DNA from: Octopus vulgaris
Taxonomy: Eukaryota
Reading direction: 5' to 3'
Assembly (NCBI GenBank): GCA_951406725.2
Contig: OX597826.1
Span: 25,916,001 to 25,980,000 of the forward strand
DNA length: 64,000 nt
Shown: in pieces, positions 102-26,104 of the stretch
Position numbering within the stretch: the stretch's first letter is position 1
How the letters are laid out: each line of letters begins with the position of its first letter
The notes under the pieces: model-generated
Told to the model about the DNA's origin: nothing
The model's database searches: none
What the model saw: only the letters and a program-made list of their open reading frames with translations
Position numbers and translations under genes: made by a program

Positions 102-192
102 ATGAAGTCTGTTACAGTTGCATACGTCCTCTTTGTGATGCTGTCTTGTTTGACAATAGCATATTCTTATGTTCTGAGGGAATTGGCAAAAA
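102..192 (+). CDS. Gene A exon 1: signal peptide
   Basis: ACCATG start; MKSVTVAYVLFVMLSCLTIAYSYVLRELAK has a basic N-terminus, hydrophobic core and small-residue cleavage region; 91 nt, then donor A|gtaagt (phase 1). Confidence 0.8.
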
Positions 193-337
193 GTAAGTAT
201 TGTCTTTTAATATATGCATTCATATTAGAAAATATGTATTTTATGTATATTTATACACACACACACACACACACACACACACACACACACACACACACAC
301 ACAAAAACACACGCACACAAACACACACACATATATC

Positions 338-632
338 AATGGCTCAGTGGTTAGGGCAGCGGACTCACGGTCAGAGGATCGCGGTTTCGCTTCCCAGACC
401 GGGCGTTGTGCGTGTTTTTTGAGCGAAAACACCTAAAGCTCCACGACGCTCCCGCAGGGTGTGGTGCCGACCCCTGTTGTACTCTTTCGCCCCAACTTTC
501 TCTCACTCTTTCTTCCTGTTTCTTGAGTAACGCTGCGATGGACTGGCGTCCCGTCCAGCTGGGGGGAACACATACGCCCCAGAAACCGGGAAACCGGGCC
601 CATGAGCCTGGCTAGGCTTGAAAAGGGCGCAT
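338..632 (+). mobile_element. tRNA-derived SINE family 1 with Meta-SINE-like core
   Basis: tRNA-like head tggctcagtggttaggg...; core ctgcgatggactggcgtcccgtccag...agaaaccggg; other copies at 9039-9243, 35256-35516 and 58698-58935 (all minus). Confidence 0.8.
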
Positions 633-20621: not shown

Positions 20622-23600
20622 GAAAAAAAGGAAATATGAAGAGAGAGGAATCACAGAACAAGGCAATTCGGTTCCAAATAGCCAAAACAGTTGACAACAA
20701 GGCGAAGCTAAATCACTGTTTCAGAATGACGGGAGAAGATTTGAAAGATACTGTAATCGAAATGGGTTGCTTCCATCTTACATTCAAAAGAAATGCGTTA
20801 CTGAAAAATATTAAGAGAATGGACAAAGATAATATAATTATTGAGACGTATGATGCTATTGATGATTCTGAAGGCAAAGGAAGATCTGATTCTAGTAGAT
20901 ATGGAGATGATGATGTTGAAAGGAATGTAAGATCTGATCATGGTTATTATGGAGGTGATGATGTTGAAACGAAAGGAAAATCTGATTCTAGTAGTTATGG
21001 AGATGATGATGTTGAACGGAAAGTAAGATCTGATCATGGTTATTATGGAGGTGATGATGTTGAAACGAAAGGAAAATCTGGTTCTAGTAGTTATGGAGGT
21101 GATGATGTTGAACGGAAAGTAAGATCTGATAATGGTTATTGTGGAGGTGATGATGTTGAACGGAAAGTAAGATCTGATCATGGTTATTATGGAGGTGATG
21201 ATGTTGAACGGAAAGTAAGATCTGATAGTGGTTATTATGGAGGTGATGATGTTGAACGGAAAGTAAGATCTGATAATGGTTATTATGGAGGTGATGATGT
21301 TGAACGGAAAGTAAGATCTGATAATGGTTATTATGGAGGTGATGATGTTGAACGGAAAGTAAGATCTGATAATGGTTATTATGGAGGTGATGATGTTGAA
21401 CGGAAAGTAAGATCTGATAATGGTTATTATGGAGGTGATGATGTTGAACGGAAAGTAAGATCTGACCATGGTTATTATGGAGGTGATGATGTTGAACGGA
21501 AAGTAAGATCTGATCATGGTTATTATGGAGGTGATGATGTTGAACGGAAAGTAAGATCTGATAATGGTTATTATGGAGGTGATGATGTTGAAAGGAAAGT
21601 AAGATCTGATAATGGTTATTATGGAGGTGATGATGTTGAAAGGAAAGTAAGATCTGATAATGGTTATTATGGAGGTGATGATGTTGAAAGGAAAGTAAGA
21701 TCTGATAATGGTTATTATGGAGGTGATGATGTTGAACGGAAAGTAAGATCTGACCATGGTTATTATGGAGGTGATGATGTTGAACGGAAAGTAAGATCTG
21801 ATCATGGTTATTATGGAGGTGATGATGTTGAAAGGAAAGTAAGATCTGATAATGGTTATTATGGAGGTGATGATGTTGAAAGGAAAGTAAGATCTGATAA
21901 TGGTTATTATGGAGGTGATGATGTTGAAAGGAAAGTAAGATCTGATAATGGTTATTATGGAGGTGATGATGTTGAAAGGAAAGTAAGATCTGATAATGGT
22001 TATTATGGAGGTGATGATGTTGAACGGAAAGTAAGATCTGACCATGGTTATTATGGAGGTGATGATGTTGAACGGAAAGTAAGATCTGATCATGGTTATT
22101 ATGGAGGTGATGATGTTGAACGGAATGTAAGATCTGATAATGGTTATTATGGAGGTGATGATGTTGAAAGGAAAATAAGATCTGATAATGGTTATTATGG
22201 AGGTGATGATGTTGAACGGAAAGTAAGTTCTGACCATGGTTATTATGGAGGTGATGATGTTGAAAGGAAAGTAAGATCTGATCATGGTTATTATGGAGGT
22301 GATGATGTTGAACGGAAAGTAAGATCTGATCATGGTTATTATGGAGGTGATGATGTTGAACGGAAAGTAAGATCTGATCATGGTTATTATGGAGGTGATG
22401 ATGTTGAACGGAAGGTACGATCTGACCATGGTTATTATGGAGGTGATGATATTGAAAGGAAAGTAAGATCTGATCATGGTTATTATGGAGGTGATGATGT
22501 TGAACGGAAAGTAAGATCTGATCATGGTTATTATGGAGGTGATGATGTTGAAAGGAAAGTAAGATCTGATCATGGTTATTATGGAGGTGATGATGTTGAA
22601 CGGAAAGTAAGATCTGATCATGGTTATTATGGAGGTGATGATGTTGAACGGAAAGTAAGATCTGATAATGGTTATTATGGAGGTGATGATGTTGAAAGGA
22701 AAGTAAGATCTGACCATGGTTATTGTGGAGGTGATGATGTTGAACGGAAAGTAAGATCTGATCATGGTTATTATGGAGGTGATGATGTTGAACGGAAAGT
22801 AAGATCTGATAATGGTTATAATGGAGGTGATGATGTTGAACGGAAAGTAAGATCTGATCATGGTTATTATGGAGGTGATGATGTTGAACGGAAAGTAAGA
22901 TCTGATAATGGTTATTATGGAGGTGATGATGTTGAAAGGAAAGTAAGATCTGACCATGGTTATTATGGAGGTGATGATGTTGAACGGAAAGTAAGATCTG
23001 ATAATGGTTATTATGGAGGTGATGATGTTGAACGGAAAGTAAGATCTGATAATGGTTATTATGGAGGTGATGATGTTGAACGGAAAGTAAGATCTGATCA
23101 TGGTTATTATGGAGGTGATGATGTTGAACGGAAAGTAAGATCTGATAACGGTTATTATGGAGGTGATGATGTTGAACGGAAAATAAGATCTGATCATGGT
23201 TATTATGGAGGTGATGATGTTGAACGGAAAGTAAGATCTGATCATGGTTATTATGGAGGTGATGATGTTGAACGGAAAATAAGATCTGATCATGGTTATT
23301 ATGGAGGTGATGATGTTGAACGGAAAGTAAGATCTGATAATGGTTATTATGGAGGTGATGATGTTGAAAGGAAAGTAAGTTCTGACCATGGTTATTATGG
23401 AGGTGATGATGTTGAACGGAAAGTAAGATCTGATCATGGTTATTATGGAGGTGATGATGTTGAAAGGAAAGTAAGATCTGATAATGGTTATTATGGAGGT
23501 GATGATGTTGAACGGAAAGTAAGATCTGATCATGGTTATTATGGAGGTGATGATGTTGAACGGAAAGTAAGATCTGATCATGGTTATTATGGAGGTGATG

Positions 23601-26104
23601 ATGTTGAACGGAAAGTAAGATCTGATAATGGTTATTATGGAGGTGATGATGTTGAAAGGAAAGTAAGATCTGACCATGGTTATTATGGAGGTGATGATGT
23701 TGAACGGAAAGTAAGATCTGATCATGGTTATTATGGAGGTGATGATGTTGAAACGAAAGGAAAATCTGATTGTGGTAGTTATAACTGTGATGATGTTGAA
23801 CGGAAAGTAAGATCTGACCATGGTTATTATGGAGGTGATGATGTTGAAACGAAAGGAAAATCTGATTCTAGTAGTTATGGAGCTGATGATGTTGAACGGA
23901 AAGTAAGATCTGATCATGGTTATTATGGAGGAGATGATGTTGAACGGAAAGTAAGATCTGATCATGGTTATTATGGAGGTGCTGATGTTGAACGGAAAGT
24001 AAGATCTGATCATGGTTATTATGGAGGTGATGATGTTGAACGGAAAATAAGATCTGATCATGGTTATTATGGAGGTGATGATGTTGAAAGGAAAGTAAGA
24101 TCTGACCATGGTTATTATGGAGGTGATGATGTTGAACGGAAAGTAAGATCTGATCATGGTTATTATGGAGGTGATGATGTTGAACGGAAAGTAAGATCTG
24201 ATCATGGTTATTATGGAGGTGATGATGTTGAACGGAAAGTAAGATCTGATCATGGTTATTATGGAGGTGATGATGTTGAACGGAAAGTAAGATCTGATAA
24301 TGGTTATTATGGAGGTGATGATGTTGAAAGGAAAGTAAGATCTGACCATGGTTATTATGGAGGTGATGATGTTGAACGGAAAGTAAGATCTGATAATGGT
24401 TATTATGGAGGTGATGATGTTGAACGGAAAGTAAGATCTGATAATGGTTATTATGGAGGTGATGATGTTGAACGGAAAGTAAGATCTGATAATGGTTATT
24501 ATGGAGGTGATGATGTTGAACGGAAAGTAAGATCTGACCATGGTTATTATGGAGGTGATGTTGTTGAACGGAAAGTAAGATCTGATCATGGTTATTATGG
24601 AGGTGATGATGTTGAACGGAAAGTAAGATCTGATAATGGTTATTATGGAGGTGATGATGTTGAAAGGAAAGTAAGATCTGACAATGGTTATTATGGAGGT
24701 GATGATATTGAACGGAAAGTAAGATCTGACCATGGTTATTATGGAGGTGATGATGTTGAACGGAAAGTAAGATCTGATCATGGTTATTATGGAGGTGATG
24801 ATGTTGAAAGGAAAGTAAGATCTGATCATGGTTATTATGGAGGTGATGATGTTGAAAGGAAAGTAAGATCTGATCGTGGTTATTATGGAGGTGATGATGT
24901 TGAACGGAAAGTAAGATCTGACCATGGTTATTATGGAGGTGATGATGTTGAACGGAAAGTAAGATCTGATCATGGTTATTATGGAGGTGATGATGTTGAA
25001 AGGAAAGTAAGATCTGATAATGGTTATTATGGAGGTGATGATGTTGAACGGAAAGTAAGATCTGATAATGGTTATTATGGAGGTGATGATGTTGAACGCA
25101 AAGTAAGATCTGATCATGGTTATTATGGAGGTGATGATGTTGAAAGGAAAGTAAGATCTGATCATGGTTATTATGGAGGTGATGATGTTGAACGGAAAGT
25201 TAGATCTGACCATGGTTATTATGGAGGTGATGATGTTGAACGGAAAGTAAGATCTGATAATGGTTATTATGGAGGTGATGATGTTGAAAGAAAAGTAAGA
25301 TCTGATAATGGTTATTATGGAGGTGATGATGTTGAACGGAAAAAAATATCTGATAATGGTTATTATGGAGGTGATGATGTTGAACGGAAATTAAGATCTG
25401 ACCATGGTTATTATGGAGGTGATGATGTTGAAAGGAAAGTAAGATCTGATCATGGTTATTATGGAGGTGATGATGTTGAACGGAAAGTAAGATCTGACCA
25501 TGGTTATTATGGAGGTGATGATGTTGAAAAGAACGTAAGATCTGACCATGGTTATTATGGAGGTGATGATGTTGAACGGAAAGTAAGATCTGACCATGGT
25601 TATTATGGAGGTGATGATGTTGAAAGTAAAGTAAGATCTGATAATGGTTATTATGGAGGTGATGATGTTGAAAGGAAAGTAAGTTCTGACCATGGTTATT
25701 ATGGAGGTGATGATGTTGAACGGAAAGTAAGATCTGATAATGGTTATTATGGAGGTGATGATGTTGAAAGGAAAGTAAGATCTGATAATGGTTATTATGG
25801 AGGTGATGATGTTGAAAGGAAAGTAAGATCTGACCATGGTTATTATGGAGGTGATGATGTTGAAAGGAAAGTAAGATCTGATCATGGTTATTATGGAGGT
25901 GATGATGTTGAACGGAAAGTAAGATCTGACCATGGTTATTATGGAGGTGATGATGTTGAAAAGAAAGTAAGATCTGACCATGGTTATTATGGAGGTGATG
26001 ATGTTGAACGGAAAGTAAGATCTGACCATGGTTATTATGGAGGTGATGATGTTGAAAGGAAAGTAAGATCTGATCATGGTTATTATGGAGATGATGATGT
26101 TTAA
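20622..26104 (+). CDS. Gene A terminal exon: C...GCF domain end, KR sites, 109 x 16-aa peptide repeat
   Basis: Acceptor tttacttaaag| after AT-rich intron; 5.5-kb open frame (tracked 1822-aa ORF); HCFRMTGEDLKDTVIEMGCFHLTFKR resembles gene B exon 3; then RKVR-SD(H/N)GYYGGDDVE repeats. Exact acceptor is uncertain. Confidence 0.75.

Follow-up and report, generated by a model that had tools for sequence, protein, structure and literature searches.

A spliced Octopus gene with a 109-unit coding array, a possible multi-copy peptide precursor

Comparison with described systems

Precursor proteins that are cut by convertases into many copies of a peptide include those of FMRFamide, Antho-RFamide, apidaecin and Baramicin, the fungal Kex2-processed repeat proteins and the fish antifreeze glycopeptide polyproteins. 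To our knowledge the animal peptide precursors carry a few tens of copies. Here we describe a gene of Octopus vulgaris (assembly GCA_951406725.2, contig OX597826.1) whose last exon holds 109 tandem units of 16 amino acids, well above that number. It lies at 102-26104 of the window, a stretch of 64,000 nucleotides (contig positions 25,916,001 to 25,980,000, forward strand) in which all positions below are counted unless another location is given. We estimate at about 0.5 the probability that this gene encodes a multi-copy peptide precursor which is cut for bulk secretion.

The array gene has in common with them a signal peptide, here putative, near-identical tandem units and a basic site at every joint. 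It differs in having no sequence relation that could be found, no amidation signal and only the minimal R-X-X-R site. The protein works most like a multi-copy peptide precursor, although it fits no named peptide family and lacks the canonical sites of a furin substrate.

A second group with which it can be compared is formed by the histidine-rich proteins of squid beak, the suckerins and the Gly/Tyr-rich shell matrix proteins, which are also secreted and rich in short Gly/Tyr/His motifs. An earlier note on the sequence of this window had pointed to a loose likeness between the HGYYGG motif and squid beak and sucker-ring proteins. Protein searches gave no sequence match to any of these proteins, although low-complexity relatives can be missed, and the array protein differs from them in its strongly charged units, in the basic site of every repeat and in a His that is not conserved in Octopus bimaculoides.

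Transcription and gene structure

The array gene is real and spliced. The start of exon 4 was found in 20 of 22 sequencing runs, of which 17 were guessed by the tool to be RNA and none is recorded as such, and splicing was analysed over 17620-20980 in four of them (X1, X2, X8 and X20, with tissues given only as codes). The GT..AG joint between exons 3 and 4 (17719 to 20622), the spliced transcript that the earlier note had proposed to look for, is present in three of these four runs, with a depth of 10,826 in X1, 9,957 in X2 and 41 in X8. In run X20 the contig continues across the intron-exon border as DNA would, without this joint. The loose end that the X2 contig shows at 17648 carries the last part of exon 2 and supports the exon 2-3 joint. 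In X8, 368 bases precede exon 4, equal to 72+171+125, and judging by this length the stretch should include exon 1; the exon 1-2 joint rests on the RefSeq models and on the length of this contig. The array itself is seen to be transcribed at both ends and in repeat-derived contigs, not as one molecule through the 109 units, and a loose end in X8 at 20956 matches sequence from beyond the array (26105..26185 region). Exon contigs reach a depth of 9,322 (X1) and 9,957 (X2) against 95-147 (X1) and 9 (X2) for intron contigs, which suggests an abundant transcript, contig depth being a poor measure of expression.

The exons were mapped by tblastn of the Octopus sinensis protein XP_036364445.1 (P0001). 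Four coding exons (102-192, 13898-14068, 17648-17719 and 20622-26104, plus strand) encode 1,938 amino acids (~220 kDa), and every intron is of the GT-AG type and in phase 1. The earlier note had proposed a spliced gene of three exons; the splicing stands, with two internal exons in place of one. The candidate TATA box, the signal-peptide-like exon, the KR sites and the open terminal exon that it listed are all present.

Coding exon 1 (102..192, plus strand) starts with the ATG at 102 and encodes the signal-peptide-like sequence MKSVTVAYVLFVMLSCLTIAYS followed by 8 amino acids, ending at a phase-1 donor GTAAGT. Its hydropathy reaches 2.7, A-Y-S stands at a plausible signal cut as judged by inspection, and the O. 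sinensis and O. bimaculoides models begin with the same start. The candidate TATA box, TATAAA at 15..20 (plus strand), lies 82 bases 5' of the ATG and was recognised by sequence only. Coding exon 2 (13898..14068, plus strand, 171 nt), placed by tblastn and by the loose end in X2, encodes the first two cysteines of the N-terminal domain. One Asn-X-Thr site is found at the exon 1-2 joint and another inside exon 2, both of them conserved. Because of the signal-like start and these two conserved sites we infer entry into the secretory path, and the array protein is likely to be secreted.

Coding exon 3 (17648..17719, plus strand, 72 nt) matches residues 89-113 of the O. sinensis protein at 100%, in addition to its splice joint. 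The unique part of exon 4 (20622..20884, plus strand) completes the four-cysteine domain (CFRM...MGCFHL) and continues in an acidic spacer that ends in KGR, with two KR sites before the array (20786-20791 and 20813-20818, plus strand). The N-terminal part is then ordered as a signal-like start, a four-cysteine domain of ~140 amino acids and two KR sites, after which the array begins.

The TAA stop codon (26102..26104, plus strand) falls inside the last unit. In frame after it comes a remnant (26105..26185, plus strand), transcribed in run X8, in which a further incomplete unit leads into a short tail with Cys-Cys. A Cys is also the last residue of the O. bimaculoides models. Other alleles may encode a longer, cysteine-ended protein that reads past the stop at 26102-26104. 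A candidate polyadenylation signal, AATAAA, is placed at 26331..26336 (plus strand) by its letters.

The tandem array

One long open reading frame occupies 20594-26101 of the plus strand and contains 101 GYYGG motifs, with none in the other five frames. The array proper (20885..26101, plus strand) is made up of 109 in-register units of 16 amino acids (48 nt each) without indels, the last being 11 amino acids long, and its consensus is SD(H/N)GYYGGDDVE-RKVR. The earlier note had spoken of 109 copies of SD(H/N)GYYGGDDVE; the number of units is right, and 94 of them are exact copies (SDHGYYGGDDVE in 59 and SDNGYYGGDDVE in 35), the other 15 being single variants. Tandem Repeats Finder described the array as 110 copies of period 48 with 94% matches and 0% indels, and 38 distinct DNA units were counted among the 108 full-length ones. 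The 108 linkers comprise RKVR (90), TKGK (4), RKIR (4), RKVS (3), RNVR (2) and five that occur once. YGG is present in 101 of the 109 units and follows a second Tyr, as YYGG, in 100; His is present in 64.

The first part of the array (20885..21124, plus strand) has a 32-aa dimer type, in which an SDSSSYG-type unit with an R-x-V-R linker alternates with an SDHGYYGG unit with a TKGK linker. A second island of the same type (23717..23908, plus strand) is embedded in the homogenised array, and both islands look older than the rest. The unit that spread couples the HGYY (GYYGG) peptide to the R-X-X-R linker and not to TKGK. This fits selection for cutting, yet it is a single event.

The open frame across the array is weak evidence when taken alone, because only ~2.2 stops would be expected by chance among the 39 array variants (P(0)=0.11) and the minus-strand frames are also largely open. 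The reading frame is fixed by the splice joint and by the orthologues, not by the openness of the array.

A dispersed non-coding satellite, the possibility that the earlier note had set against a gene, is ruled out: a 22-base pattern of the unit gave 106 matches in the genome, of which 104 lie in the array and the remaining two within GAT microsatellites.

Orthologues and database searches

The only close database match was the uncharacterised O. sinensis protein XP_036364445.1 (LOC115218617), of 238 amino acids, whose N-terminal part is identical to that of the array gene at 164 of 164 residues. A search of longer proteins added the O. bimaculoides orthologue LOC106876298 (XP_014780279.1, XP_052828275.1 and XP_052828276.1), with 141 of 164 residues identical. 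Both share with the array gene the 16-aa period and the S..G.YGG..VER.VR frame. They differ in that their models, likewise uncharacterised, hold 2 units in O. sinensis and 6-8 units of the SYDGSYGGDNVE-RNVR type in O. bimaculoides, and not the 109-unit array. The older name of the O. bimaculoides record, "stress protein DDR48-like", is likely to be a compositional label. Between O. vulgaris and O. bimaculoides the unit is identical at 11 of 16 places (S, G, Y-G-G-D, V-E-R and V-R). The O. bimaculoides unit reads S-Y-G-G, and neither the double Tyr nor the His is common to both species; the di-tyrosine, by which the earlier note described the peptide, is not conserved. Since the O. bimaculoides isoforms differ solely in the number and order of their units, these database models may hold a collapsed array.

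A profile search, in which 8,000 candidates were scored, returned only the O. sinensis and O. bimaculoides proteins. No clear relative outside Octopus was found by word-based protein searches, by HMMER with the 104-aa piece of exon 4, or among PDB sequences, the ESM Atlas and metagenome contigs, and other cephalopods may simply be missing from the sequence sets searched. The absence of a match to a characterised protein, on which the earlier note had made novelty depend, is borne out by these database searches, in which the clear relatives were all uncharacterised proteins from Octopus. In the O. vulgaris genome no paralogue of exon 2 or exon 4 was detected and the gene is single-copy. The surrounding 474 kb contain no second similar array and no DUF4773 exon, and a Pfam scan of 150 of the 262 low-repeat frames of this neighbourhood called transposon families only.

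A search of main-text literature by motifs, gene ids and accessions gave no paper on this gene; subscription journals lie mostly outside that search and a description may exist. No match was obtained in the searched parts of the supplements of PMC10138644, PMC10142993, PMC9712504, PMC7693380, PMC6635378, PMC9258296 and PMC9699675, and the accessible parts of PMC12607849, PMC7656900 and PMC9258296 do not mention the gene. We have here an Octopus-restricted, spliced and apparently abundant gene, and the public protein models that were found lack its 5.2-kb coding array.

Cleavage sites and products

A prohormone convertase that acts at monobasic sites cuts after an Arg which has a basic residue three places before it. 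A basic residue precedes the Ser at 104 of the 108 unit joints and the minimal R-X-X-R site is present in 97, so that by their letters the linkers fit this monobasic rule, as well as any trypsin-like enzyme. RKVR, TKGK and the O. bimaculoides RNVR all keep the basic residue before Ser, with 5 of the 16 places differing in the peptide; one O. bimaculoides model (P0005) contains nine R-X-X-R|S sites. The boundary between domain and array is marked by KR sites in O. vulgaris and by RNVR in O. bimaculoides.

Following its signal-like start, the array protein would enter the secretory path and be cleaved wherever a basic residue precedes the Ser of a unit, by a trypsin-like protease or by a prohormone convertase acting at the monobasic R-X-X-R sites. 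Cutting would free the N-terminal four-cysteine domain and, from each chain, about 100 near-identical Tyr-Gly-Gly peptides of 15-16 residues. One cut per unit would yield a 16-mer. A carboxypeptidase commonly trims the C-terminal basic residue after a convertase cut, which would here leave SD(H/N)GYYGGDDVERKV, a 15-mer ending in DDVERKV. The 12-residue product claimed by the earlier note does not agree with these cuts; it would need a second one, which could not fall at a dibasic pair in the O. bimaculoides RNVR. The computed monoisotopic masses of the unmodified 15-mer and 16-mer are 1695.75 and 1851.85 for the His form and 1672.73 and 1828.83 for the Asn form; a 12-mer would have masses of 1312.48 (His) and 1289.47 (Asn). 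The peptides would probably feed a bulk secretion. Least certain is the last step, in which these acidic tyrosine peptides, perhaps sulfated or oxidised to DOPA, would act by mass in the product of a gland, where they would bind metal or become cross-linked, and not serve as receptor ligands.

Several observations weigh against a cut precursor. The furin consensus is R-X-K/R-R, with exceptions such as the cut RLLR|DL, and positive charge at P2, P4, P5 and P6 counts in the scoring of furin sites (PMC3281273 and its Table 3). None of the 108 linkers fits this consensus, and they have Val at P2 and Glu at P5 in place of a positive charge; for these reasons they are, as read from their letters, weak furin sites. 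The earlier note, which took R-x-x-R as a furin or prohormone-convertase site, was right that the linkers are mostly RKVR (90 of 108), but RKVR is not the furin consensus. Both linker Arg residues are kept between the two species, but with a unit identity of 11/16 this has a chance of 0.46, and the retained pair is consequently no evidence of selection on the cut site. Among the distinct variants within the array 8 are synonymous and 31 non-synonymous (P=1.0), as expected without selection, and no selection within the array was detected by this count. Finally, the searched parts of the proteome supplements for O. vulgaris skin mucus, ink and salivary gland contained no match to the peptides.

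The neutral variant spectrum, the 2 and 6-8 units of the RefSeq models of the other species and the conservation of the N-terminal part with O. bimaculoides (141/164) could also be accounted for if the 109 copies were a recent neutral minisatellite expansion behind a working part made of the N-terminal domain and a few units. We consider this very improbable, given that the models of the other species may be collapsed and that in three runs the array start had ~190 to 1,200x the depth of the contig for the unique exon (an indicative figure, from summed contig depths).

Linkers that fall below the furin consensus also suit a protein that is left uncut or is partly cut. The array would then be a long disordered polyampholyte, in which Tyr-Gly stickers and Arg condense into a glue, mucus, cuticle or egg cement that is hardened by tyrosine cross-links. 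Tyr and Arg are known to drive condensation, and the composition of the array suits a condensing glue or mucus: over 1,739 amino acids it is near neutral (net charge -0.069 per residue) and 43% charged, with 210 Tyr and 203 Arg, and its unit length is strictly constant, with zero indels. We regard this as the main alternative, less likely than a cut precursor: the basic residue before Ser is retained at 104 of 108 joints and in every linker type, Pfam finds no chitin-binding or other structural domain, the beak, suckerin and shell proteins gave no match in the searches described above, and the His, present in just 64 of the 109 units, is lacking in O. bimaculoides. If uncut, the array protein would be a new cephalopod repeat material. 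If it is cut, as in the multi-copy precursor that we favour, its ~100 peptides per chain would exceed those of any animal peptide precursor known to us, and some tissue of the octopus would count these unknown molecules among its most abundant.

Built like a prepropeptide, with KR and monobasic R-X-X-R sites and with Tyr near acidic residues, the protein also recalls a neuropeptide or hormone precursor, from which a released and possibly sulfated peptide would activate a receptor, the copy number amplifying the signal. Y-G-G is also the start of enkephalins. A signalling role is nevertheless unlikely: the unit ends in DDVE-RKVR without an amidation Gly before the basic site, relatives were found in Octopus only, a separate cysteine domain precedes the array, and the three searched supplement files of the O. 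vulgaris brain atlas gave no match.

The N-terminal domain and DUF4773

The 104-aa piece of exon 4, when searched with HMMER against 1.84 billion representatives, gave five matches, of which two were the Octopus orthologues. Two starfish proteins with tandem DUF4773 domains were matched by phmmer at E 6.7e-10 and 3.9e-5 (in each case the sum of five stretches); the fifth match was an unrelated TPR protein at E 3.1e-4. DUF4773 (PF15998, 27-bit cut-off) was not called by Pfam, at E up to 1, in the octopus proteins P0001 and P0002 or in the exon-4 piece, and the array locus is not among the 10 matches of this Pfam family in the genome. With a profile built from starfish and octopus DUF4773 sequences, the score of P0001 was reached by 6 of 5,000 shuffles and that of P0002 by 82 of 5,000. 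Alignment of the N-terminal domain with DUF4773 by hhalign gave a probability of 2.3% (P=0.02), and its pairwise scores against two DUF4773 paralogues from the same contig were reached by 875 and 152 of 2,000 shuffles.

The domain of these paralogues, at ~39.58-39.60 Mb, is encoded by exons of 174/93/239 and 168/93/272 bases, separated by introns in phase 1. The array gene likewise has three domain exons (171/72/last) and all its introns in phase 1, but when the sequences are aligned its introns are displaced by 1 and 5 codons. The motifs L-x-F/Y-L-R-x-D, G/N-K-x-x, C..R and GCF follow in a similar order in the DUF4773 proteins and the N-terminal domain. They differ from it in their cysteines, 10 in the starfish unit against 4 here, and the paralogues on the same contig are without a repeat tail. 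Predicted structures (pLDDT 34.9 and 52.3) show the domain as mostly strands, and the best fold-search Z was 4.4, with no clear fold match. Taken together these comparisons are suggestive only of an N-terminal domain that may be a decayed DUF4773, and we give its descent from that family roughly an even chance. DUF4773 is without known function; it is named in two papers (PMC11431876, PMC12064177), in one as part of the skin-mucus proteome of an octopus and in the other among markers of oyster haemocytes. The array gene may show how a lineage-specific secretory gene arises when a decayed DUF4773 gene gains a 48-base unit that is then amplified.

The same-contig pair are tandem genes on the minus strand (C13:39576019-39603672, loci L020-L023). 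One further DUF4773 gene, on the plus strand at C9:46473867-46497816 (L026-L028), has a long lysine-rich stretch before its domain. The first exons of the genes on C13 and C9 were not found.

Adenochrome

Adenochrome is an iron-binding peptide pigment of Octopus vulgaris. Its desferri form hydrolyses to adenochromine and glycine in a ratio of 1:2, and its biosynthesis is described as "not well clarified" in PMC7504153, in the accessible part of which no precursor gene is named. The pigment is linked to the white bodies by the title of a 1982 paper cited in PMC9103826 and PMC4768315. The array gene could be thought of as the ribosomal precursor of this pigment, and this we hold to be highly improbable. 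By this route, the Tyr of Tyr-Gly-Gly would be converted to DOPA-quinone and joined to two 5-thiohistidines, and the product trimmed to an iron-binding core of modified DOPA and two glycines. The link is a match of composition only: one modified DOPA per two Gly agrees with the conserved Tyr-Gly-Gly, which is found in 101 of the 109 units and in 6-8 units of each O. bimaculoides model, the neighbouring Tyr not being common to both, and a chain with ~100 copies would be suited to a pigment made in bulk. However, the two adjacent Tyr of the 100 YYGG units miss the 1:2 ratio unless one alone is modified. The motif match is not specific either, because the genome is rich in repeated YGG-coding triplets (441 matches against 1,011 for the reversed control), and no tyrosinase family was called in the Pfam scan of 150 of 262 neighbourhood frames. 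If true, such an origin would represent an animal pathway for RiPPs (ribosomally synthesised and post-translationally modified peptides) whose precursor has 109 cores, and the question of how adenochrome is made, open since 1979, would be answered.

The scan for the YGG pattern also brought up long satellite arrays of 46- and 47-base period at C3:40453832-40460423 and C10:426384-429256. These are likely to be non-coding, since their periods are not divisible by three.

Neighbouring features

A second candidate for a signal-peptide-like first exon is located at 54339-54450 (plus strand), with a phase-1 GTAAT donor, and is single-copy in the genome. No downstream exon was identified in the next 70 kb, and the candidate may be due to chance or belong to a neighbouring secreted gene.

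The minus strand of the window carries broken copies of LINE-type retroelements at 27900-32500, 40153-42981 and 47000-51500, and at 40153-41256 and 42148-42981 the calls were to families of reverse transcriptase and endonuclease. Outside the window, a perfect tandem array with a 485-base unit (7.5 copies, 100% matches) was found at C13:25758863-25762479 (L055), and is either a recent duplication or an assembly artefact.

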